Shown piece by piece: positions 3,074 through 54,895 of a DNA stretch of 64,000 nt. The notes below the pieces were generated by a model. That model did not search any database. It saw nothing but the letters and a program-made list of their open reading frames with translations, and had not been told where the DNA came from. The position numbers were made by a program, and so were the translations under genes. Within the stretch, counting starts at the first letter, position 1. Each line of letters opens with the position of its first letter. Where the stretch lies: assembly GCA_038861395.1 (NCBI GenBank), contig JAWCDE010000001.1:73144-137143 (forward strand), given 5' to 3'. The DNA is from Thermoproteota archaeon. GTDB lineage: Archaea; Thermoproteota; EX4484-205; JAAOZP01.

Positions 3074-3663
3074 TGAGAGTCCTTTTAATAGACAATTACG
3101 ATTCCTTCGTGTACAATATTGCCCAGTACGTGGGGGAGCTAGGCGCGTCTATAATGGTTTTTAGAAATGATGATATCGACGTTAAGAAGGCGAACAAAAT
3201 TAAGCCAGATAGGATAATAATATCGCCCGGCCCAGGCACCCCGGAGGACAGGAGATACTTCGGCAATTGTATTTCAATAATACGTAAGCTAGGCCCTAAG
3301 ATTCCAATTCTCGGAGTGTGCTTAGGACATCAGGGTATTGCATACACTTTTGGTGCAAGAATTTCTCATGCGAGCAGGCTTATGCACGGAAAGACGAGTA
3401 TGATTAAGCATGATGGTAGAGGGATATTCAGAGGAGTACCAAATCCATTCGAGGCAACACGTTATCATTCTCTAGTAGTAAGTGCCTTTGACATGCCCCC
3501 CTTATTGAAAATAACTGCATATTCTCTTGAAGACTGCGAGGTGATGGGTTTAAGACATGTTGAGTACCCTATTGAAGGAGTACAGTTCCATCCGGAGTCT
3601 ATACTTACTCGGGAGGGGAAGAGGATATTGAAGAATTTTCTTGACGGAGGGGTTAAGCTTTGA
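3073..3663 (+). CDS. trpG: Anthranilate synthase component II (class I glutamine amidotransferase)
   Basis: [16 protein letters not shown]...GVCLGHQ catalytic Cys-His motif. The start overlaps the trpE stop (TAATG). Confidence 0.9.
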   Translation: MRVLLIDNYDSFVYNIAQYVGELGASIMVFRNDDIDVKKANKIKPDRIIISPGPGTPEDRRYFGNCISIIRKLGPKIPILGVCLGHQGIAYTFGARISHASRLMHGKTSMIKHDGRGIFRGVPNPFEATRYHSLVVSAFDMPPLLKITAYSLEDCEVMGLRHVEYPIEGVQFHPESILTREGKRILKNFLDGGVKL

Positions 3664-11914: not shown

Positions 11915-12119
11915 CTGCCGACTTATATAGCTTTTTATATGGGTTTCAATACAATCTTCTTTACTAGTTTATTCACAAAAACAGAGGTATCGTTACCAAA
12001 TAAATAAGCATGGTTTTATTAGCATCAAATAAATCGTGCAGAGAGATGAAGCGTGTTGGAAAATCTAACAGGAGTCAAGTTAGAAAAACTTTAAATCGTG
12101 AGGATGTGAAAATTCCACA

Positions 12120-12211
12120 GCCCCAGTAGCTCAGCCTGGTTAGAGCGCCTCCTTGGTAATGCTGAAAAGCGCTGATGGAGGAGGTCGTGGGTTCGAAGCC
12201 CACCTGGGGCT
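12120..12211 (+). tRNA. tRNA-Thr (anticodon GGT) with a ~17-nt intron in the anticodon loop
   Basis: Hand-folded: acceptor GCCCCAG/CTGGGGC, D-arm GCTC-AGCCTGGTTA-GAGC, anticodon stem CCTCC/GGAGG, loop TTGGTAA, intron tgctgaaaagcgctgat, T-arm GTGGG-TTCGAAG-CCCAC, discriminator T. Confidence 0.75.
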
Positions 12212-12261
12212 TGGATTAAGACTTATAATGTGCCTTTGTGTTAGAAAATCGGTGGATCTCT

Positions 12262-13296
12262 ATGAGAAGACCCCTCTTGTACGCTACTGTTGCTACACTG
12301 CTCCTCTTGTCAGCACAGCTCTGCTTTTTGAAAGCACAACAAACAATTACTATTGACGGCGACGTTAGCGATTGGGATGCTCTGGGAATTCAACCAGTGT
12401 ATACTGATCCGGTCGGTGATACTGAGGCATGGTCTAAAGACCCTTCTGTATTAGGAGTGGGTTCGACTGCTGAACCTCCGGATAAGGTTGCTGCTAACGA
12501 CAAGTGTAGAGATCTAAAGGCTCTCTACGTATGGTGTGACGATGAATGGATATATATCAGACTCGATGTTGCGGAGCTCTACGAGGGTTGGAGCATAGTG
12601 AGCACCAAGATTACTGAAGATAATGCGCAAGTCACCTACCCTAACGTGAGCGCTTACCATCTATACTTTGATTTAATACCGGGTGGTCAGAGAGATAGTG
12701 CAGCTGCTTCAGACGTGGATTTTCAAAAAAACGGGTACGAGTGGGAGTTTAACATACAGTTTGACGCAGGCCTCTACGGAGAGAACTACGGTAAGCCATT
12801 TATGCAGTTTCCGGATTGGAGCATAGCTACTATTGAGGACTTCGGCGTTGACTTAGCTAGAAGCGCTTTCGAAATGAGGGTTAGTAAAGCTTTGCTTGAG
12901 GAGAGATTCGGAGAACTTGGGACGGCAAGGGTTTTCGTCGGTTCGATTAAACCAGGTGAGCCGAAGGGTAGCTGGGGCACTTGGGCACATGCCTTCGACC
13001 CCCAGCATCCGGGATGCCCAGGGGAAGCGGCCTGGGGTACCTGCGGCCCGGAAAATGATAGAGGCAGCGACTTCGCCGACGTAATGCCTAACGATTCTCT
13101 CGAGCCTCCTAGCGGCGGATGGTGGGAAGACTGGCTGAGCCATGTTACTACCATGATACCAGTAAACCTGGCTCCAACTGAAAAAGCTGCTCCAACATTG
13201 CCCTGGGCAGGGATTGCAGCAGGAATCATCATCCTAGCAATAATAGTTGTAATAATAGTGGCCTACTACGTGCTTAAGCGTAAGACTAAGACTTAG
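12262..13296 (+). CDS. Secreted/surface protein with N-terminal signal peptide and C-terminal transmembrane anchor
   Basis: The ORF likely starts at MRRPLLYATVATLLLLSAQLCFLKAQQ (signal peptide). It ends with LPWAGIAAGIIILAIIVVIIVAYYVLKRKTKT, a TM helix plus basic tail. Composition between the two is acidic and Trp/Gly-rich. Confidence 0.55.
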   Translation: MRRPLLYATVATLLLLSAQLCFLKAQQTITIDGDVSDWDALGIQPVYTDPVGDTEAWSKDPSVLGVGSTAEPPDKVAANDKCRDLKALYVWCDDEWIYIRLDVAELYEGWSIVSTKITEDNAQVTYPNVSAYHLYFDLIPGGQRDSAAASDVDFQKNGYEWEFNIQFDAGLYGENYGKPFMQFPDWSIATIEDFGVDLARSAFEMRVSKALLEERFGELGTARVFVGSIKPGEPKGSWGTWAHAFDPQHPGCPGEAAWGTCGPENDRGSDFADVMPNDSLEPPSGGWWEDWLSHVTTMIPVNLAPTEKAAPTLPWAGIAAGIIILAIIVVIIVAYYVLKRKTKT

Positions 13297-13326
13297 CCTC
13301 CTAACTCTTTTATTTTTTTCCACAAT
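13297..13326 (+). terminator. Oligo-T tract (ttttatttttttcc) downstream of the surface-protein gene
   Basis: A T-rich run immediately after the stop codon, archaeal intrinsic-terminator-like. Confidence 0.3.
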
Positions 13327-13343
13327 ATTCCTTAGAGAAATCA

Positions 13344-13433
13344 AGCCTCGGGAGGGATTCGAACCCTCGACCTGCAGCTATCTCAGCCTCTTGCTTACGA
13401 GGCTGCCACTCTACCAGGCTGAGTTACCGAGGC
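13344..13433 (-). tRNA. tRNA-Thr (anticodon CGT) with a ~16-nt intron at or near 37/38
   Basis: Reverse complement folds as GCCTCGG-TA-ACTC-AGCCTGGTA-GAGT-G-GCAGC-CTCGTAA-[gcaagaggctgagata]-GCTGC-AGGTC-GAGGG-TTCGAAT-CCCTC-CCGAGGC-T. Confidence 0.72.
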
Positions 13434-13514
13434 TCATCCTAATATCTCTATGGAGAAGCTTAAAATTCTTTCCCTAGCCTTATTTATAGTTTAAAAGTTA
13501 TTTTTTTATTTGAG

Positions 13515-13588
13515 GGCCGCCGCCGAGATTTGAACTCGGACAAGTGGCTCCACAGGCCACCGCGCTGCCTGGTTACGCTACAGCGGCC
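13515..13588 (-). tRNA. tRNA-His (anticodon GTG) with genomically encoded G-1
   Basis: Reverse complement: G(-1)-GCCGCTG...GTGGC-CTGTGGA-GCCAC...CCGAG-TTCAAAT-CTCGG-CGGCGGC-C. The extra 5' G pairs with discriminator C, a hallmark of archaeal tRNA-His. Confidence 0.8.
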
Positions 13589-13694
13589 ACAATCAATCTC
13601 CATTACAACCTTGTTTTAAAACTTTCTTCAAAATGCCTTGAACTCCCCCCGGAGAGGCTAAAGAATTTATATATCCTTTAGAAATAAGAGCCTC

Positions 13695-13782
13695 GGGCCG
13701 GTAGTTCAGTGGTAGAATGTCCGGTTTGCACCCGGAATGAAATGCTCCCGGAGGGTCGTGGGTTCGAGTCCCACCCGGTCCA
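13695..13782 (+). tRNA. tRNA-Ala (anticodon TGC) with a 16-nt intron at canonical 37/38
   Basis: GGGCCGG-TA-GTTC-AGTGGTA-GAAT-G-TCCGG-TTTGCA[cccggaatgaaatgct]C-CCGGA-GGGTC-GTGGG-TTCGAGT-CCCAC-CCGGTCC-A. The intron carries a duplicate of the 3' stem half, which gives bulge-helix-bulge (BHB) potential. Confidence 0.72.
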
Positions 13783-13851
13783 CTCCAATGTTTTATCTCA
13801 AAAATAAAACTAGTTTATTAGACTCTACCAACATTCTAACTGGGTTGGGAA

Positions 13852-26208: not shown

Positions 26209-26299
26209 TGCGGCGCCCGGGATTTGAACCCGGGATTCCCAGCTTGGGGGGCTGGTTTTAGGGAAGCAAGCCTGTCCTACCAGGCTAGACCAGCGCCGC
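26209..26299 (-). tRNA. Probable tRNA-Gly (anticodon CCC) with a 17-nt non-canonical intron between the D-stem and the anticodon stem
   Basis: Reverse complement: GCGGCGC-TG-GTCT-AGCCTGGTA-GGAC-[aggcttgcttccctaaa]-A-CCAGC-CCCCCAA-GCTGG-GAATC-CCGGG-TTCAAAT-CCCGG-GCGCCGC-A. Arms are near-identical to the intronless tRNA-Gly(TCC) at 43127-43201. The anticodon loop is unusual (C33). Confidence 0.55.
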
Positions 26300-43913: not shown

Positions 43914-45663
43914 ATAAAAGGATTGGTTTAGAAATGCCTTCAGCCGTTAAAAAGCCGTATCCCGGGGGAAGCCTCTTAAGAAGGTCATAATCTTCCTGAG
44001 GTAAACCCATTATATCCATTAGGATTCTCGACTCCTCCCCCTCGCATATTCTATGAGAGATTTTCAAACCGGTGGACTTTATTATTTCTGGAGAAATCTG
44101 TGACGGAAATTGTGATATAAGTATTAAACTTTCATTAAACTTCCTCATCTCTAAAAATAATTTTTCAGCTATAGTCGGTGGTGAATCACGCCTCCTGTAA
44201 GGAAGTATATTATGCGCTTCTTCTAATACGATGAAGTGGCGTTTTGCATTCCTATTCTTTAATCTAAATTCGTAAAGTAATGCTAAAATGAAAAGTGAAG
44301 TCAGTTTACGCATATCCACTTCTATGATATCTCCGAGCTCGAAAACAGTAATTCCTTCTAATATATCTTTGATGCTTATTAGCTTATCCCTATTGCAGAA
44401 AATTTCTCTGTTCTGTCCTGTTACTAGAGGCCTTAATCTTCTTAACAATGCAAACTTCGTCTCATTTTCATAGAATGATTTAATACTCCATTTCTCTAAT
44501 GTATCTATAAAGGAAACCAAAGGATCATGTGCTTTAATACCGAGCATGTTCTCTGTTAACGTTTGTAAAAGCACCTCTCTAAACATATATGATTGTGACG
44601 GCGTAAAATTATATATTTGATCAAAAATATCTGTAACTATTGCAACATGCTCAGATACATTGTTAGATTCAATAGGGTTAATTATATCTAGAGTGAAAGA
44701 CCCTAATCCTAAAATTCTTCCATTAAGCTCTTCTGCAAGATGACGGTATTCATTATGCCAGTCTAGAATCATTAAAGAATATCCCAATCTTGCTAATTCT
44801 CTTACTATATGTTTGGCGGTAGTTGTCTTTCCCGATCCTGTTGAACCATATATGGCGACATGCTTCTCAAACATATTGATCTTTAATTTTAACGGAGCAA
44901 TTTTAGAACCACTGAAAATAACCGATCCTAAATCTATTGTTTCTTTTTCCCCCTCATGTTCAATATAAGAATTTGAAGGAAGCAGGGAAGTATAGCCAGG
45001 TATATGCGGTGCGAGCGAATTTGCTAAATCTCTTGCTTTAGACTTTCCTAAGAAAGGTTTATCTATTAAAATACTGTTCAAATACTTAATAAGTTTCTCC
45101 CCCTTCAATCTGACTATTTTCAGTTCTGGAAAAGCAGTATTGTAAATAGATCTAATTTTTTCAATATCTGTTTCAAGCATTTTTATAGCTTCGTTAATGC
45201 CCTCTCGACCTATTTTTCTACTAACTATTAAAAGCTGCGTCAAATGAGCAGAGTCCTCAGAAGCCTCAATGGGAGAAATATGCGTTACGCATGTGAGTGA
45301 AACTCCGGACTTTAAAATACCGCTTATGAAACTCTGAACCTTCCGATAGTAATCGTCGGCTTTAATACTGCTTAATTCAGAGCTTTCTTCAGGAGATATT
45401 GAAACCCCTCCTATTATTAATTCAGAGGAGTCTGTTTTCACAATAAAGTATTTTTCGTCATTAATTGGTAGTATACTTTTAATAGATTTGGAGCGTTTTA
45501 ATAAAAACGCTATTATGATGGTTATTAGGGAGAATACTATAGGCAAAACAGCTGGAAAATAATTGTTGAAAGAAAAAGGCAAAGCGGTTATAATATGTTT
45601 AAACATCAATATGAGTAACACTATCAGAAATATGAAGTATATTGGATCTATTTTTTGATCCAT
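43867..45663 (-). CDS. Membrane-anchored HerA/VirB4-type (DUF87) ATPase, CedB/TrbE-like
   Basis: Two N-terminal TM helices, then a HerA-FtsK-superfamily core: Walker A AIYGSTGSGKTT followed by ILDWHNEY, and Walker B FIVLEEAHNIL. 598 aa. Last gene of the island operon. Confidence 0.7.
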   Translation of the reverse strand: MDQKIDPIYFIFLIVLLILMFKHIITALPFSFNNYFPAVLPIVFSLITIIIAFLLKRSKSIKSILPINDEKYFIVKTDSSELIIGGVSISPEESSELSSIKADDYYRKVQSFISGILKSGVSLTCVTHISPIEASEDSAHLTQLLIVSRKIGREGINEAIKMLETDIEKIRSIYNTAFPELKIVRLKGEKLIKYLNSILIDKPFLGKSKARDLANSLAPHIPGYTSLLPSNSYIEHEGEKETIDLGSVIFSGSKIAPLKLKINMFEKHVAIYGSTGSGKTTTAKHIVRELARLGYSLMILDWHNEYRHLAEELNGRILGLGSFTLDIINPIESNNVSEHVAIVTDIFDQIYNFTPSQSYMFREVLLQTLTENMLGIKAHDPLVSFIDTLEKWSIKSFYENETKFALLRRLRPLVTGQNREIFCNRDKLISIKDILEGITVFELGDIIEVDMRKLTSLFILALLYEFRLKNRNAKRHFIVLEEAHNILPYRRRDSPPTIAEKLFLEMRKFNESLILISQFPSQISPEIIKSTGLKISHRICEGEESRILMDIMGLPQEDYDLLKRLPPGYGFLTAEGISKPILLSIDSNEKGDSASRNA

Positions 45664-45667
45664 TATT

Positions 45668-45856
45668 TTAAGGAAGGAGCCATCCGAATAGGCTATAGCC
45701 TAAGTCGCTTACACCCTTTATTAGAGAGTTGAAGAAATTAGCTATGTTATCCACGATTTGTTTTGAAACCCCAAAGACTGCTCCAAGCATTACTAGTGCG
45801 AGTACAACAAGCAATCCCTCTTCTATTAATTGCGATCCCTTAATTCTCGTTTTCAA
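45668..45856 (-). CDS. Pilin-like small protein with a class III (prepilin-type) signal peptide candidate
   Basis: MKTRIKG|SQLIEEGLLVVLALVMLGAVFG: a basic leader, G at -1, then a hydrophobic helix. 62 aa. Sits between the TadC-like and HerA-like genes. Confidence 0.4.
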   Translation of the reverse strand: MKTRIKGSQLIEEGLLVVLALVMLGAVFGVSKQIVDNIANFFNSLIKGVSDLGYSLFGWLLP

Positions 45857-45920
45857 ATCTACATCACCTCATTTACAGAAGGAGATGAACAAAATATAAG
45901 CTCCAATGGAATTGAGACAT

Positions 45921-46694
45921 TCAAAATAGGAATGCTGTAAGTACTCTGTTAAATATTAGAAAAGAGAGTGCAAAACTAGTTATAGAGTATAATAATGTTT
46001 TCAAAAGCCTCTTATAAGAGAGAGAATAATGTACTAATATCGAAATGCTCAGTAAATACGTAAATAATGAAAATGTTTGCGATGCTTCTAATTGAAGAAT
46101 CGGCTTCGATGAAAGGGAAGAGAACATATTGATTACTGGTCCCGCTGCTGAAAGAAATCCCATTAAAAGAGCACTAACGATTAGCATTATTCTGGCTCTA
46201 AACCTTGCTTCTGAAAAAATGTTTCTCCTCTCATTTTTCAGTATCTCGTTTTCTTTCAGAATGATGATATATGTTTCTAAAACTTTTTTGGCAGAAGATG
46301 CATCCCTAACAAATAGGCTTGAAACGAGTCTCATCAATATTTTAATAGTTTTATCTGAAGATTTGGAATACTTTACTAAAGCTTTTCCTATTGGAAAACC
46401 GTTTATGTTGTCGTGAATAGCCTTTTCGAAAATCTTACGACAATTCGTTTCCTCGTTAATATCCGGAAATGATTTAAAAACTAAATTTTCCAAGTTTCCA
46501 GGATATTCGGATATCTTCTCTACTGCTCTCAAATCCAGTGCTTTTGGAGAATCCACATCATCTCCATTTTTGGTCAATATTAATGTATATACTAGAAGTT
46601 GTAATGAACTTATAGCTGGAATCTCGAGTTTTAAGATAAATGCTAAAATAAGAATTCCTGCTTCAATTAATATATAATAATAAATATTCCTCAA
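45921..46694 (-). CDS. TadC/FlaJ-like type IV pilus platform membrane protein (T2SS-F-like repeat), second half
   Basis: 257 aa: N-terminal TM pair, a soluble helical domain of about 130 aa, then C-terminal TMs. Confidence 0.45.
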   Translation of the reverse strand: MRNIYYYILIEAGILILAFILKLEIPAISSLQLLVYTLILTKNGDDVDSPKALDLRAVEKISEYPGNLENLVFKSFPDINEETNCRKIFEKAIHDNINGFPIGKALVKYSKSSDKTIKILMRLVSSLFVRDASSAKKVLETYIIILKENEILKNERRNIFSEARFRARIMLIVSALLMGFLSAAGPVINMFSSLSSKPILQLEASQTFSLFTYLLSISILVHYSLSYKRLLKTLLYSITSFALSFLIFNRVLTAFLF

Positions 46695-47272
46695 CCTAGT
46701 AATACACTCTTGATCTTTCTAATCTTATTAAAAAATATTCTAAATATCAGGGTATTGGAAATGAAAAAGATTGGCAGTAGTATATAGGAAGTCTGTGGCA
46801 GAAATTCTGAGATCAGTATAATTGGAGTTGGAACAAGGAAGATATAGAAGAAGAAAATAGAAACCAAAGAGTTAAGCTTTAAAGTATATTCTTGGTATTT
46901 CCTTCTTGCCTTTGATTCAAAAATCCTAAAGAGCACTAGAACTTCTTCTGAACTTATCTTCTTCGCATCGATGGAGAATGCTTGATCAATAATAGTTAAT
47001 AGTTCTGGCTCATTTTGTAAAGAATTTTTTATCATTTTTTGCATATCCTTTCCGTTTAAGTTCTTCTTAAGACATTTTCTTAATAAGCTGTAGATATTAC
47101 CGTATTCCTTTTTTGAAACGCTATAAAGTGTCTTATATAGATCATTATAAATTGTTTTAGCAGTAATGATATCCATTGCCAATGGAGTCACTATCTCATA
47201 ATGACTCTCTTCTTTTTTCCTTAATGGTGTTAAAATGTAAAGAAATGTTAAAAGATTCTTAATACTCTTCAT
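46691..47272 (-). CDS. TadB/FlaJ-like platform membrane protein, first half
   Basis: 193 aa with a cytoplasmic helical domain and C-terminal TMs. 4-nt overlap with the downstream half. Confidence 0.4.
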   Translation of the reverse strand: MKSIKNLLTFLYILTPLRKKEESHYEIVTPLAMDIITAKTIYNDLYKTLYSVSKKEYGNIYSLLRKCLKKNLNGKDMQKMIKNSLQNEPELLTIIDQAFSIDAKKISSEEVLVLFRIFESKARRKYQEYTLKLNSLVSIFFFYIFLVPTPIILISEFLPQTSYILLPIFFISNTLIFRIFFNKIRKIKSVLLG

Positions 47273-47277
47273 AGCTT

Positions 47278-49140
47278 CTATTTCCTCCCTAAAGTCTTCG
47301 AATAGGTTTCAAGAACAAGGCCCCTGATAACGGAGTTTTCTGAAAAACCGTGATTAATAATTATTCTTTTAATATCCTCATATATTTCTTGAAGAACATT
47401 TTCTTCAATACAGTTTAAACGTGCTAATTTTCTAAATATCTTTGAAGCGTTTAAATCATCATAATATGGAGAATTTTTCAAAAAATTATTATTAGCGTAA
47501 ACTTTCTTCAAACCAGAGTTCTCATCAACTATCTTTATCTCGCTTATAAACCGTTTAACCGTATTTCTCCATTCTAATCTCTTCATATTTATTATTAAGT
47601 CTAGCTCTGGTATGAGTAATTCTGGGATGCCGTATACTTTTACAAGCCTCTTAATAAACCCATTGCTATCGGAAGCGTGTGCAGTATGCATTATCCTGAG
47701 TCCAGCGGAAACTGCTCGAAACATTGCTTTTACATGCCCCCTGGTTTGGATCTCTCCAAGAATTAGATAAGAAGGGGTTCTGTGAAGTACCTTAATTATT
47801 TCGAGAGTTTTAGTATCCTTAGCCTCCCTGCTTTCCAATGGCTCGACAATGTATACTATCCTGTGTTGATCAGAAACTCTTGGAGGAAGCGTTTCAAGAG
47901 CGTCTTCTATATGCACTATGCGCCACCAAGGGGGCATGAAGTAGCTTAAAAAGTTTAAGAGAGAAGTTTTTCCAGAATTTGGTTCTCCAACTATAGATAT
48001 GTTGGCCCTGTTAAGCGTGGCAAAGATTAAGAAGGCAGCAGATTCTGGAGAAAAATAATGCGTCTCCAGAAGGTACTTGAGAGGAAGAACATTACTCATA
48101 TGCTTTCGTACATCTATAACTCCTTTACCCCAGGTTAGGGGAGGAATATCTACCGAAATTCTTATAGGTATTTTATCAAAAAATATGGAAGTCTTAATTG
48201 AAGGATTAGCATAATCCAGATTAAGGTTAGACTCTCTTTTGATCAGGGTTATGAAGCTTTCAAAATCCTTCTCTTGAAATTTGAGGTTTGTATCTAGTCT
48301 TCCAAAAACGGCGTGGTCTACATATAACTTTTCACCAACATTGTCTAAGAAGAAGTTTTGCACGTTATCATCGATTATTAAAGGAAAGATCTTGGATAAT
48401 CCAATCGAAGAATATAGAGCATGTTTAACAAGAGACTTCTTTACGGATTTCTCGATTTCTCTTAAAGTCAGAATGTTTAAGAATCTTAAACCAGTTTTAA
48501 GCCTATGTCTGTAAATTTGATCTAGTCTTCCACTCCTAAGCATTTCTTCAGAATAAGCATAACGTAAGAGTATCGAAAGCTCTTTATTAATCCAGAAATA
48601 ATCATCTGATAAGAAGGAAACTCTGTAAAGACTATTTCTTTCGTCTATTGAGTAGAGTAAGTGGCCTATTACGTATCTATGATCGTCTGAAAACTTCTTG
48701 TTAAAAACATTTTCCCTATCTTTAATACCGCATTTGGTCAATAACTCGCCGGGTATATTAAGTTCCAGCATCTGGTTTAAGTATTTTAAGTATAAGGTAC
48801 CGTAAGACGGAGTAATGCAGAGCTCTTTCTGAATGTCATCTAGGTTAGTGTAGTTATCACAATTTTTTTCAGCAAGAGCTCTATAACGCTTGTTTTTCTC
48901 TTCCATAACTCTTTGAGAGCATTTCTTTAGAAAATCTAAGCAATCTTTATTGACCTCGTACCATTCATCGTCAAGATAAACTATAATTCTTCTCGGGGAA
49001 AGATGTGTAAGCTTATGTATAATGCTGCAGAAAAGGGAAGAGTCGATTTTCTGAGCGGATAGGTAGAGAATTCTACTCCTAGCATTCCATGACCATGTTC
49101 TTCGTGCAAAAAATACGAGGCTTTCTCTAGTCTCGCTCAT
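47278..49140 (-). CDS. Type II/IV secretion system ATPase (FlaI/TadA/VirB11-GspE family) with a long N-terminal extension
   Basis: C-terminal domain with Walker A IVGEPNSGKTSLLN, the Asp box and LILGEIQTRG (GEIR-type motif), and the His box HTAHASDS. About 330 aa of N-terminal sequence of unknown family. 620 aa. Confidence 0.75.
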   Translation of the reverse strand: MSETRESLVFFARRTWSWNARSRILYLSAQKIDSSLFCSIIHKLTHLSPRRIIVYLDDEWYEVNKDCLDFLKKCSQRVMEEKNKRYRALAEKNCDNYTNLDDIQKELCITPSYGTLYLKYLNQMLELNIPGELLTKCGIKDRENVFNKKFSDDHRYVIGHLLYSIDERNSLYRVSFLSDDYFWINKELSILLRYAYSEEMLRSGRLDQIYRHRLKTGLRFLNILTLREIEKSVKKSLVKHALYSSIGLSKIFPLIIDDNVQNFFLDNVGEKLYVDHAVFGRLDTNLKFQEKDFESFITLIKRESNLNLDYANPSIKTSIFFDKIPIRISVDIPPLTWGKGVIDVRKHMSNVLPLKYLLETHYFSPESAAFLIFATLNRANISIVGEPNSGKTSLLNFLSYFMPPWWRIVHIEDALETLPPRVSDQHRIVYIVEPLESREAKDTKTLEIIKVLHRTPSYLILGEIQTRGHVKAMFRAVSAGLRIMHTAHASDSNGFIKRLVKVYGIPELLIPELDLIINMKRLEWRNTVKRFISEIKIVDENSGLKKVYANNNFLKNSPYYDDLNASKIFRKLARLNCIEENVLQEIYEDIKRIIINHGFSENSVIRGLVLETYSKTLGRK

Positions 49141-49283
49141 CTGTAGACAACCTTTAGGAAATTGCTTAGCTCACGATACTTTTTCTCCAAGCTTAAAACC
49201 CTGTTGTTGAGCTTGCTTAGACTAATCTTCAAATCCTCTATTTCTTGAATTATTGCATTAATTAATAGATCGTCTTTGGACAT
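49137..49283 (-). CDS. 48-aa coiled-coil micro-ORF translationally coupled (ATGA overlap) to the secretion ATPase
   Basis: Translated by hand: MSKDDLLINAIIQEIEDLKISLSKLNNRVLSLEKKYRELSNFLKVVYR*. Its TGA stop overlaps the ATG of the downstream ATPase gene. Not in the ORF track because it is under 60 aa. Confidence 0.35.
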   Translation of the reverse strand: MSKDDLLINAIIQEIEDLKISLSKLNNRVLSLEKKYRELSNFLKVVYR

Positions 49284-49371
49284 CACTTCTATTCTAAACT
49301 TTTAAAAAGAATATTTATCTGCCAATATTGACACTCATTGGAGGTTATAAGCATTCTTACAGAGATTTCTG

Positions 49372-49554
49372 TTGAATAATGAAAGAAAATTTCAAACTGG
49401 GAGGTTTAGAGAGATGAGTAATCTGTTAGAGAAAAGTCTGATAGTGCTTTTTTCAACAATAATCTTTGGAATTAGTATTGCTTACTTGCTTGATCAAGTA
49501 GTTCCTATGCTCAAGCAAATATACGATGTCGTAGTTAAACTGATTACTGGCTAA
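49372..49554 (+). CDS. Small membrane protein (pilin-like candidate)
   Basis: 60 aa with one hydrophobic helix (LIVLFSTIIFGISIAYLL) after a basic leader. First of four co-oriented small genes. Confidence 0.3.
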   Translation: MNNERKFQTGRFREMSNLLEKSLIVLFSTIIFGISIAYLLDQVVPMLKQIYDVVVKLITG

Positions 49555-49559
49555 CTCGG

Positions 49560-49955
49560 GTGAGATCATTGAGCGAAATACTTGAAGAACATTTGAAAGA
49601 TGCTTCATGGCTTTTTACATCACTTCTAATAGGAATTGTTATTTTTAATACTGCTTGTGTTCTGAAAACGGATTTCTTGAAAAATATCTTTGAAAGCATA
49701 TTTTTAGTAATAAAACAATACGCCGTCCTTTCGGAGGAGCATGGATGTACTTTCACTCTGTTAATGCCAAGTCCTCCCTTAATTAATTATTCCATTATGC
49801 TTGACGGCAACAAGTATTACATTATTATTCATGGGATCTGTGTTTTCGAGGGGGAAGAGGAATATTATTACTTTAATAGAGTCATTTTAGAACCTGGAGG
49901 CAAATATTTTGTAAAAGCATCAGGTAGGGAGGTTGTATTTACTAGGCATGAGTGA
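49560..49955 (+). CDS. Small protein with N-terminal TM helix (pilin-like candidate)
   Basis: 131 aa. GTG start. The hydrophobic segment WLFTSLLIGIVIF lies near the N-terminus. Confidence 0.3.
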   Translation: MRSLSEILEEHLKDASWLFTSLLIGIVIFNTACVLKTDFLKNIFESIFLVIKQYAVLSEEHGCTFTLLMPSPPLINYSIMLDGNKYYIIIHGICVFEGEEEYYYFNRVILEPGGKYFVKASGREVVFTRHE

Positions 49956-50072
49956 TAAGCTACTCGAATCACTATTCTCCTCAATCGTAGTCTTGCTGAT
50001 AATAATCGAACTTGGTTTGGCTCTTTTGCTTACCTTACATAATATATCTATTATGATGGGCTTCATTAAAAG

Positions 50073-50468
50073 GTGGTGAAAAATACTATGGATTCTTGGG
50101 AAAGTATGTTAGCAATAATCTTAAGCTTCTTTCTAGTTATACCCGTGGTTGCTGCTTCCCAATATTTGAGGTTGAAATTCAAATCATTATCCGATATCGA
50201 TGAGGATTTGAGAATAGAGGTTAATGCACTTACGATACTTGACCAAGAACATGAGATCAAAAATATGCTCGAGAAATTGATTAAATTTCTAAATTCTGAT
50301 GAAGTAGAATGGGTGAGTATAGAGCTTTCCAGCGAGAAGCATGGGAGGATTACAATAAGGAATGAAAGAGTTTCAATAGAGTCTTGGAAGCAGGTCAAAT
50401 ATGTCAAAGTCTTAAAGATCATGGGCGAAGATGTATTGTATCTTACGATAGGGATTAGAAATGATTAA
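50073..50468 (+). CDS. Small protein with N-terminal signal/TM (pilin-like candidate)
   Basis: 131 aa. MLAIILSFFLVIPVVAAS then a soluble domain. Confidence 0.35.
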   Translation: MVKNTMDSWESMLAIILSFFLVIPVVAASQYLRLKFKSLSDIDEDLRIEVNALTILDQEHEIKNMLEKLIKFLNSDEVEWVSIELSSEKHGRITIRNERVSIESWKQVKYVKVLKIMGEDVLYLTIGIRND

Positions 50469-50964
50469 AACCTGGCTTATTGTAGTGTTTGTTTCAATTC
50501 TCATAATGATTGTTCTACTTGCAGTAAACCTCATGCTCTTAGTAAATGTTGAGCTTTCAGTAAATTTCTTAAAACAAAAAAGGAAAGCGATAATCGCTGA
50601 TTCCTGTATAGATGATTTCTTTAAAAGTATTAGCACAATTCTGGATGATAGCATAAGTAGTTCGAGAGGGAATTTTTCAATTATGAGGGAAACCTTAGAA
50701 AAGAGGATTGAAAAATTAATGGAAAAAGTTTCAAAAACCAAAGGATTTTTAGAAGAATGCGGATTAAAAATCTGCTTTGAAAACTCTATTGTTTTCCTCA
50801 ATAATACTGAAGAATACGTTATCCAAATAGCTGTTAAGGCTTATGCAGAAGACTGCGAAGGATTTTTCTCAATTAGGCGTAGTAGCAATATAGTACGTTT
50901 CCTTCGTCAAGAAATCTGTGAAGAATCGAATATTGCTGAACTTTTTCCAAACAATTCCTCATAA
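50461..50964 (+). CDS. Small protein with N-terminal TM helix (pilin-like candidate)
   Basis: 167 aa. WLIVVFVSILIMIVLLAVNLMLLV. 8-nt overlap with the preceding gene. Confidence 0.35.
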   Translation: MIKTWLIVVFVSILIMIVLLAVNLMLLVNVELSVNFLKQKRKAIIADSCIDDFFKSISTILDDSISSSRGNFSIMRETLEKRIEKLMEKVSKTKGFLEECGLKICFENSIVFLNNTEEYVIQIAVKAYAEDCEGFFSIRRSSNIVRFLRQEICEESNIAELFPNNSS

Positions 50965-51836
50965 GTTTCTCTAACACTGTATTCTGCATATCCTATGTAC
51001 TCTGCTAATTCCCTTTGAGTAACGGGGTTTTTGATGTTTAAGATTGATGCTGCTTCTTTAGATGCTGCGTAAATTATAGAAGCTATGCATATCATCGGGT
51101 TCTTGCTTCTAAAAAAATAATGTTTGGCTCTTAAATCTTTGAGAATTCTTAATGAGATTGTTTTAAGATTATTGATAAAATTGACTTTGTCTTCAGGTTT
51201 AAGCTTTTCCAGACGGCTATTATTCCTCATGATCATAGAGGTGATTTCAATAATTGTCTTATCAGCATCGTTTTTCGTTTCCATAAGGCCTATCTCTCTT
51301 GCTGCAGACATTACTTGAAGAATATCCCTGGTTTTAACTTTAAGACCGATGCTTTGCAAATATATCCTTATCTTCTTGTAATGAGGAGCTATGCTTAAGC
51401 CATGGAACCTTGCTGCAACAACTACAGAATACGTTGCAATAGCTGCTCTATTAGGTCTTTCACGATTTTGTCTGAATACATGAAGCAGGCTTAAACCAAT
51501 CCGATGCGATTCCAGTCTTATTGAGGGACCTAAATGGAATGTATCACACAATTTATCTATTAACCATTTTAATTCGCTTTCGCTTTTATTAGAGGGGGAT
51601 ATGCTCTTTTGGAGGCTGGAGATTTTTCTAAGAGAGTTTTTCTCTATAATAATGCTCCCGTAATGAGGTTCTTTTTGAATAATGTGATTCGGACTTGGAT
51701 GGGCCACATATCTGTTCGAAGCACTAACAACTAGACCGCATCTGCTGCAAACAAGCTCATTATCCGAACTTATAATGGGGGAGTTACAGTTAGGGCATTT
51801 CGTAAAGTCTTGGACTACTTCTTGGCGCATCTTCAA
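50907..51836 (-). CDS. tfb: Transcription factor B (TFIIB) paralog, divergent
   Basis: N-terminal TFIIB zinc ribbon (CPNCNS...CSRCG) followed by two cyclin-like repeats (RPNRAAIATYSVVVAARFHG... and ...NPMICIASIIYAASKEAASILNIKNPVTQRELAEYIGYAEYSVRETYEEL). 309 aa. AT-rich. Confidence 0.72.
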   Translation of the reverse strand: MKMRQEVVQDFTKCPNCNSPIISSDNELVCSRCGLVVSASNRYVAHPSPNHIIQKEPHYGSIIIEKNSLRKISSLQKSISPSNKSESELKWLIDKLCDTFHLGPSIRLESHRIGLSLLHVFRQNRERPNRAAIATYSVVVAARFHGLSIAPHYKKIRIYLQSIGLKVKTRDILQVMSAAREIGLMETKNDADKTIIEITSMIMRNNSRLEKLKPEDKVNFINNLKTISLRILKDLRAKHYFFRSKNPMICIASIIYAASKEAASILNIKNPVTQRELAEYIGYAEYSVRETYEELFGKSSAIFDSSQIS

Positions 51837-51953
51837 AGTAACATAGTCTGTTAATCGATAAAAGCTACTATGAAATAGAGTTATGCTCTAAAGTAAATAA
51901 CATGCTTCAGAAAGTATTAAAAATAGGGAGTGGAGTGTAAAAATGGGTTAAAA

Positions 51954-52373
51954 ATGATGAGGGCAGGATTCACAACAGAAGTCAACCGCTTGATAGGGAA
52001 AAAGGTTGTCGTAGTTACTCAGGGTGGTGAAGAATTCTCTGGGGTTTTAGCATCTTTAGACATAGACACTTTTTCGGTTATTCTGAATGACGTAGAGCTA
52101 AGAGGGGGCGGTGTGTTGCCAAAAATTATACTTAATGGTAGAGATGTAAAAAGAATAGAGCTTAAAAGAGCAATCGTTGACCTGAGGAAGCTGGCGGAGA
52201 GAATAGAAAGGGTATTTCCTAAAATGGTGCAGTATAATGAAGAAGCAGGGGTAATAATAGTGATGAATAGAATAAGGGTTACTGAAGACGGTGTTGTAGA
52301 AGGAAGTGGCCTTGCTGCGGAAAAGGTCAGCGAGATATATAATGAATTTGTTAAAGAGATTTCAGAGTCCTAA
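51954..52373 (+). CDS. Sm-like (LSm) protein with C-terminal extension
   Basis: Sm1/Sm2 pattern (LIGKKVVVVTQGGEEFSGVLASLDIDTFSVILNDVEL) plus about a 70-aa C-terminal domain. An alternative start lies at 51930. Confidence 0.5.
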   Translation: MMRAGFTTEVNRLIGKKVVVVTQGGEEFSGVLASLDIDTFSVILNDVELRGGGVLPKIILNGRDVKRIELKRAIVDLRKLAERIERVFPKMVQYNEEAGVIIVMNRIRVTEDGVVEGSGLAAEKVSEIYNEFVKEISES

Positions 52374-54343: not shown

Positions 54344-54469
54344 TTTTTCAAAGATTTGAAACATTGGGTCAAACGCTTTAGCCAGTCTTAACTACACAAT
54401 GGGAAAAGACTAATAGCCTAATAAACAATACGCGTAGAGGTGTTGCTAGGTGTTAAACTAAAAGGGAAA

Positions 54470-54557
54470 TGGGCCGGGCCGGATTTTCGAAGTTCTTCTC
54501 GAACCGGCGACCTCTGCCGTGTGAGGGCAGCGTCCTAACCATCTGAACGACCGGCCC
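54470..54557 (-). tRNA. tRNA-Val (anticodon CAC) with a 14-nt non-canonical intron inside the T-loop
   Basis: Reverse complement: GGGCCGG-TC-GTTC-AGATGGTTA-GGAC-G-CTGCC-CTCACAC-GGCAG-AGGTC-GCCGG-TTCGA[gaagaacttcgaaa]AT-CCGGC-CCGGCCC-A. All other arms are canonical, and only the T-loop is interrupted. Confidence 0.65.
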
Positions 54558-54895
54558 ACTAGCTTGATTACAAGAATACTCTTATATTCTTTTTCCCCTT
54601 TTTAATAGTCTATCCTTTCTTAGCCCTCATCTCAGTCCTCTTGGGCCTTAAATTCTTGCTGTGGCATTTCCTACACTTTTTAGCAGTAATCGCATTCCTT
54701 GCCCCACACTTTCTGCATATCATGAAGCGGAGCCTCCGCCTCTTTATAATTTCTATCAACACAGGGTCGCTTATCTTCATACCGTTTTCCCAGCCAGCTC
54801 CAAGTTTTTTAAAGATTTACCCGCCGCTTATCTTTCTCAGGCAGAGCTTTAAAACGGGAAGATTTAAAAAGCATTCTTCAAGTCAAAGGTAGCGT

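Follow-up and report, generated by a model that had tools for sequence, protein, structure and literature searches.

A predicted 14-nt intron at position 59/60 in the T-loop of tRNA-Val(CAC) in an archaeon of the Brockarchaeota lineage

Between the two halves of the T-stem (GCCGG/CCGGC) of the archaeal tRNA-Val(CAC) gene studied here lie 21 nt, which is 14 nt more than the normal 7-nt loop. This locus raises the question of whether the extra 14 nt are an intron of a functional tRNA and, if so, where the splice junctions lie and what kind of endonuclease could cut them. A preliminary description had proposed an archaeal endonuclease-type intron whose removal would leave the loop TTCGAAT or TTCAAAT, and had regarded it as a rare crenarchaeal peculiarity. 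The whole 64-kb stretch of DNA that was analysed is referred to below as the window.

The interrupted gene

In the Rfam scan of the window, the gene matched RF00005 over the full model length with 52.5 bits, and the alignment placed a 16-nt insertion within the T-loop. On the minus strand, the 5' part of the gene reads GGGCCGG UC GUUC AGAUGGUUA GGAC G CUGCC CUCACAC GGCAG and the 3' part reads AGGUC GCCGG UUCGAGAAGAACUUCGAAAAU CCGGC CCGGCCC A. The host of the insertion is a genuine tRNA gene with canonical acceptor, D and anticodon arms, and G18 G19, U33, A37 and the discriminator A73 are all present. The precursor was not called as a gene by ARAGORN in the whole window, where 7 other tRNA genes were called. 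When 14 nt were excised, tRNA-Val(CAC) was called, provided that U54 was kept and the 7-nt loop was restored. Excision of the insert therefore gives a standard loop and a recognisable tRNA. No second Val tRNA was found within the 64-kb window by ARAGORN and Rfam. The location of the gene, its canonical remaining arms and the 14-nt T-loop insertion had all been given correctly in the preliminary description, which left the strand unstated; the first two are borne out by the RF00005 match and the cloverleaf, and the insertion by the sequence and the ARAGORN calls after excision.

The identical tRNA-Val sequence was present in 5 independent MAG assemblies and 1 Logan contig, which excludes an assembly artefact. 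Chance is likewise excluded, since the gene, a promoter element and the fold are conserved in many relatives. The tRNA-Val(CAC) gene is thus interrupted by a 14-nt T-loop insertion, and this is a confirmed, real feature. The coordinates of the gene and its parts are displayed in Table 1. The promoter role of the upstream element is putative, and the T-rich tract is likely a transcription stop. Just upstream of tRNA-Val and on the same strand lies a gene for ribosomal protein L40e (56 aa, 54610..54780), assigned by the gene call and a Pfam match in identical MAG loci; the TATA-like element conserved in the spacer that separates them belongs to tRNA-Val.

Table 1. Positions in the window of the tRNA-Val(CAC) gene, its predicted exons and intron, and adjoining elements
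Feature	Position	Strand	Basis or remark
Pre-tRNA-Val(CAC), 88 nt, without encoded CCA	54470..54557	-	RF00005, 52.5 bits, and sequence
5' exon, tRNA positions 1-59, ending ...GCCGG UUCGAG	54498..54557	-	Predicted splice site after linear nt 60 = G59
Predicted intron, 14 nt, AAGAACUUCGAAAA, site 59/60	54484..54497	-	Sole tRNA-compatible 3-4-3 BHB
3' exon: U60, T-stem CCGGC, acceptor CCGGCCC, A73	54470..54483	-	Sequence and BHB scan
Central BHB helix, 5' strand, U54 U55 C56 G57	54500..54503	-	Pairs with intron CGAA
Central BHB helix, 3' strand, intron nt 9-12 = CGAA	54486..54489	-	BHB scan and homologue pairing
3-nt 3' bulge A A|U60 with predicted 3' splice site, adjoining T-stem	54483..54485	-	MFE fold
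Predicted 5' splice-site trinucleotide A58 G59|A(intron 1)	54497..54499	-	BHB scan and folds
Anticodon CAC in loop CUCACAC	54521..54523	-	Sequence, RF00005, ARAGORN
Promoter-like element GAAAAAGAATATAAGAG, purine-rich tract and TATA-like box	54579..54595	-	About 22-38 nt upstream of position 1
T-rich tract TTTCCCTTTT, directly after A73	54460..54469	-	Sequence; likely stop

The T-arm fold and the predicted junction

In the MFE fold of the T-arm, the T-stem leads through a 3-nt 3' bulge into a helix formed by the 5' half of the T-loop with the 3' end of the intron. The whole precursor adopts the same fold in this region as the T-arm taken alone, with -40.1 and -12.5 kcal/mol and z-scores of -3.0 and -2.9, respectively. 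An exhaustive scan for the 3-4-3 bulge-helix-bulge (BHB) geometry was applied to each intron-bearing tRNA of the window. For tRNA-Val, only a single tRNA-compatible solution was obtained, 59/60, in which the cuts fall after G59 and before U60 and the motif comprises h = 5 bp (the T-stem), a central helix of 4 bp and h' = 2 bp. Both junctions sit in a bulge-helix unit consisting of the T-stem, AA|U60, UUCG/CGAA and A58 G59|A. The same scan on tRNA-Thr(CGU), at 13344..13433, returned the canonical 37/38 intron with identical architecture, which indicates that the T-arm motif is a positional copy of the anticodon-arm motif, position 54 being equivalent to 32, 59 to 37 and 60 to 38.

An intron at 59/60 with the mature T-loop UUCGAGU is the most likely model of the locus, with both splicing and the exact junction standing as predictions. 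The scan disfavours the two loops of the preliminary description, as other cuts fit the bulge poorly. The motif that was expected at its junctions does exist, but at 59/60 and not at the 56/57, 57/58 or 58/59 junctions that it implied. Its comparison of the insertion to an archaeal endonuclease-type intron stands, given the bulge-helix fold and the conservation in homologues described below.

In BHB substrates and in the anticodon-intron pair, the cut is made between bulge nucleotides 2 and 3. Explicit wording on the cut position inside the bulge was not found in the reviews consulted. Calibration of the cut on tRNA-Thr(CGU) of the window excludes a -1 shift only, because a +1 shift leaves the mature tRNA-Thr(CGU) sequence unchanged. 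ARAGORN accepted 7 of the 8 registers of a 14-nt excision and consequently has no power to place the junction.

The same 14-nt intron may therefore be considered one or two positions away, at 57/58 or 58/59, where the mature loop would be UUCGAAU. That sequence is the exact loop of two intron-less orthologues, L205 and L207. The redundancy UUCGA-G...A-A-A-U permits excision at 57/58 or 58/59 with products that ARAGORN accepts equally, and no fixed bulge constrains the 5' splice site, which is part of a loop. On the 3' side, however, a well-formed 3-nt bulge would then have to be cut either between its nucleotides 1 and 2 or where it meets the helix, and the 3-4-3 scan yields neither position. 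The homologues, to which this comparison returns below, also weigh against the shift.

The motif at 59/60 is not of the strict kind. Its distal helix h' would consist of an A-U and a G·U pair around a 3-nt loop, and was absent from both the MFE and the BHB-constrained folds of the window tRNA-Val T-arm. In the MFE fold, A58 and G59 pair with U8 and U7 of the intron, so that the 5' side is a loop and not a clean bulge. The BHB-constrained fold, with both bulges open, reaches -9.4 as against -12.5 kcal/mol and is 3.1 kcal/mol less stable. The strict hBHBh' form, with both 3-nt bulges closed by stable helices including h', is thus not attained, and the negligible h' places the motif in the relaxed hBH/BHL class. 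The EndA types that act on relaxed motifs are the (alpha-beta)2, the epsilon2 and the korarchaeal-type alpha2 with a specific loop. Motifs of the hBH/BHL class are left uncut by alpha4 and alpha'2 endonucleases and are cut by (alpha-beta)2 and epsilon2 endonucleases (PMC3239211; PMC4033280). An EndA of broad specificity is therefore implied, and it is reasonable to suppose that such an enzyme is needed here.

Introns are frequent among the tRNA genes of the window, being present in 5 of 8, and 3 of those 5 have them at non-canonical sites, which points indirectly to an EndA that can act on relaxed motifs. A cluster of 4 tRNA genes (Thr-GGU, Thr-CGU, His-GUG and Ala-UGC) occupies 12100..13800, and 3 of the 4 carry introns. 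Within it, tRNA-Thr(GGU), at 12120..12211 (+), is interrupted by 17 nt at or close to 37/38, where the scan found no strict 3-4-3 BHB; by eye its 3' bulge is apparently 1 nt, which would make it another relaxed motif in this genome. tRNA-Ala(UGC), at 13695..13782 (+), carries about 16 extra nt near 44/45 of the variable region, with a candidate BHB whose central helix CCGG/CCGG competes with the anticodon stem. A further tRNA gene, at 26209..26299 (-), has a 17-nt insert and was labelled Gly(UCC) with an intron by ARAGORN; it is unlisted in the whole-window Rfam scan and scores 38.5 bits in a local scan. Its strict 3-4-3 motif excises AGGCUUGCUUCCCUAAA at 25/26, after which ARAGORN calls tRNA-Gly(CCC) with the anticodon loop CCCCCAA and a C at position 33. 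A U at this position is near-universal in tRNAs. A window scan for long-loop T-arms gave one candidate at 12937, which lies inside a 352-aa ORF and was rejected as chance. The region 44001..52000 has a G+C content of 33-35%, compared with 40-46% elsewhere in the window, and could be foreign or otherwise atypical.

Relatives with and without the intron

Intron-bearing homologues were collected by pattern searches. With one genome per species, at least 13 genuine expanded-T-loop tRNA-Val genes were found among the 120 matches listed, which were mostly chance matches in GC-rich bacteria and did not include the window's own species. In metagenomes, 12 of 75 matches were genuine, and the rest were mostly tRNA-Val genes of bacteria, downstream of which the pattern matched by chance. 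The two sets contain at least 19 distinct intron-bearing tRNA-Val genes, all interrupted at this site by 14-34 nt. The T-stem was fixed by the patterns in both sets and the CGRA-AR-U segment in the metagenome set also, while the genome-collection pattern placed no constraint on the 3' segment.

Of the 19 homologue folds, 18 show this 3-nt bulge again, together with a helix of 4 bp or more; the exception is L032, in whose MFE fold the central helix is open. When the homologues were condensed to 16 distinct sequences, the T-stem and the central helix were paired in 100% of cells, a figure partly imposed by the search through the pattern-fixed bases, and h' was paired in 65%. Overall pairing fell from 91% to 48-56% when the partner columns were slid by one. 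The central helix shows one compensatory change, G57-C to A57-U in L032, and an even division of U-A and U-G pairs (8:8). Subject to the same effect of the search pattern, the motif nucleotides are conserved or covary while neither the sequences nor the lengths of the intron interiors show any relation.

The near-constant 3-nt bulge speaks against a cut at 57/58 or 58/59. Moreover, in the homologues with an A-G-U bulge (L016, L032, L088, L165 and L154) the shifted cut gives UUCGAGU, so that the loop would still be non-uniform. Such a shift is therefore given a small chance, and the junction 59/60 is retained as the preferred one.

Most homologues are syntenic with the window, in the order beta-CASP nuclease, tRNA-Val, L40e, orf164 (an ORF of 164 aa), AspRS and RadA, with 76-97% protein identity. 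The intron-bearing syntenic orthologues have 14-26 nt at 59/60 and share the constant pattern UUCG-AR|N...YGRA-AR|U. Conservation extends upstream to the block GAAAAGAATATAA[AG]A, which lies some 25-45 nt ahead of position 1 in the intron-bearing orthologues and is shared by the intron-less L205; upstream of L207 there is a different AT-rich sequence. The anticodon stem has undergone compensatory changes among the orthologues (CUGCC/GGCAG versus CCGCU/AGCGG).

A sample unbiased with respect to the intron was obtained from six in-group beta-CASP homologues, picked without reference to the tRNA, by reading the syntenic spacer. The 59/60 intron is present in 4 of these 6 relatives, with 15 nt in L202 (where h' consists of G-C/C-G), 16 nt in L203, 18 nt in L204 (whose sequence repeats L108) and 21 nt in L206; in these four the site was read from the sequence, outside the set of 19 folded homologues. 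The other two, L205 and L207, are intron-less and have the plain 7-nt loop UUCGAAU. In an Rfam batch scan with gathering threshold and default filters, L205, L207 and the window copy were reported, and the tRNA-Val genes of L202, L203, L204 and L206 were not. As only the intron-less genes of the six loci were found, the intron-bearing form is only marginally detectable.

Three of the syntenic intron-bearing genomes were deposited as Candidatus Brockarchaeota. Identity among beta-CASP homologues is at least 75% inside the group and at most 51% outside it, and this drop indicates that the window belongs to the Brockarchaeota lineage. Gene order and the 76-97% protein identity point to the same lineage, and the host is accordingly not a classical crenarchaeote. 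The site of the intron is also shared with DPANN: in at least 5 DPANN-type genomes (Woesearchaeota and others), tRNA-Val introns of 18-34 nt are found at 59/60, and the intron of L016 folds as a perfect hBHBh'. L032, with its compensatory A57-U pair, also belongs to this DPANN group. Two DPANN sequences, L088 (~3157..3217, -) and L165, show an apparent further interruption in the 5' half of tRNA-Val, where extra sequence separates the D-arm region from the anticodon arm.

These comparisons also bear on whether the 14 nt might simply be retained, either in a pseudogene or in a tRNA with a 21-nt T-loop. ARAGORN is blind to the precursor, and two relatives (L205 and L207) do without the insertion, as would fit such a reading. 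Yet every stem of tRNA-Val(CAC) is intact, the same neighbours and promoter element are kept across relatives of about 76-97% protein identity, and there are compensatory changes in the anticodon stem. Conserved splice-motif nucleotides around a free intron interior are the pattern of a spliced intron and not of decay, and the window holds no other Val tRNA. The tRNA elbow is built by U54-A58 and G18/G19 contacts, which a 21-nt loop would abolish. Retention is thus very improbable. An intron at 56/57 is scarcely credible, for although excision of GAGAAGAACUUCGA would restore UUCAAAU, a T-loop common in archaea, in a product that ARAGORN accepts, the scan found these junctions bracketed by no bulge-helix-bulge or bulge-helix-loop arrangement and both cuts would fall inside the conserved central helix.

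Splicing, history and comparison with known systems

The preferred reading, to which we assign a probability of about 0.8, is that of a functional tRNA-Val(CAC) spliced at 59/60 by EndA through a relaxed bulge-helix motif; the gene and the fold with its geometry and conservation are observed, and cleavage, ligation and the type of enzyme are predicted. The gene would be transcribed from its own TATA-type promoter into an 88-nt precursor. The T-arm of this precursor would have no T-loop; U54-G57 would pair with the CGAA of the intron, and A-A-U60 would bulge against the T-stem, in the layout of a canonical anticodon-arm intron. EndA would recognise the bulge-helix unit of the T-arm and make one cut at A|U60, separating the second bulge nucleotide from the third, and another at G59|A, the symmetric position 4 bp away, releasing AAGAACUUCGAAAA. 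An RtcB-type ligase would then join the exons into a 74-nt tRNA with the T-loop UUCGAGU, whose mature body would read ...GCCGGUUCGAGUCCGGC... across the 59/60 junction, and CCA would be added after ligation.

In a beta-CASP neighbour-joining tree, a rough one without support values, the deepest split has intron-bearing genes on either side, and the two intron-less genes (L205 and L207) fall inside one clade. This distribution suggests that the 59/60 intron of tRNA-Val(CAC) is ancestral and was lost later. As to its origin, the UUCGAA of the T-loop is its own reverse complement, and the window reads UUCGAG-AAGAAC-UUCGAA-AA-U. Owing to this self-complementarity, a partial local duplication would itself make the 4-bp central helix beside the T-stem. 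The same-site introns in DPANN tRNA-Val are a pointer to a structural hot spot. We tentatively propose, as a scenario that is possible but doubtful, that the intron is old in Brockarchaeota and was lost in at least two genomes, that the T-loop is a structural hot spot, and that the intron arose by partial duplication. If this were true, duplication of UUCGAA would offer a simple route to a 59/60 intron, and the lineage would provide natural pairs with and without the intron at one syntenic locus.

The intron is of a documented type and is not new in kind, and mechanistic knowledge of tRNA splicing is unchanged by this case. What is gained is a wider documented distribution of T-loop 59/60 introns, now including the Brockarchaeota lineage, together with the prediction of a broad-specificity splicing endonuclease in its organisms. 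No publication on tRNA introns in Brockarchaeota was found in the literature search. The misses by ARAGORN and by Rfam with default filters imply that genomes of this lineage can seem to lack tRNA-Val(CAC); standard pipelines probably under-call the gene, which bears on estimates of tRNA complement and completeness. Additionally, the close relatives form a clean comparative set, some having the intron at this locus and others lacking it, which is useful for studies of intron gain and loss.

T-loop introns at 53/54, 56/57 and 59/60 are recognised non-canonical sites (PMC4090602; PMC3241643). Introns at sites such as these in Crenarchaeota/Thermoproteales and Nanoarchaeota were described by Marck & Grosjean 2003 and Sugahara et al. 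2008, as relayed in PMC4090602 and PMC3241643. The present case resembles them in having BHB/BHL introns outside 37/38 in a genome with several other disrupted tRNA genes; it differs in its host lineage, which those surveys, as far as they are relayed there, left out. The rarity claimed in the preliminary description was overstated, since 59/60 is a listed site at which in-vitro cleavage is known from ARMAN-2 (PMC4090602; PMC3239211).

Inside the window itself, the 37/38 hBHBh' of tRNA-Thr(CGU) has the same 5-bp stem, 3-nt 3' bulge (2 intron and 1 exon nt), 4-bp helix, 5' bulge (2 exon and 1 intron nt) and 2-bp h' as tRNA-Val. In tRNA-Val, however, the motif is on the T-arm and h' is an unstable A-U + G·U, whereas h' of tRNA-Thr consists of two G-C pairs. 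Among known systems, the pre-tRNA-Pro(GGG) of ARMAN-2 has two T-loop introns, at 53/54 and 59/60, in a strict BHB motif (PMC3239211); the 59/60 site is common to both tRNAs, but the window tRNA-Val has a single intron and a relaxed motif. The pre-tRNA-Cys(GCA) of ARMAN-2 (Ca. Micrarchaeum) is interrupted at 59/60 by an intron of 13 nt in a relaxed hBH/BHL motif and is cleaved in vitro by the epsilon2 EndA (PMC3239211, Fujishima et al. 2011). It can be seen that the two introns share the site, the relaxed class, one good bulge, a 4-bp helix and a loop, and that they are of similar length (13 versus 14 nt). They differ in that the window tRNA is Val and not Cys, that its host belongs to Thermoproteati of the Brockarchaeota lineage and not to DPANN/ARMAN, and that cleavage is demonstrated in ARMAN-2 and predicted here.
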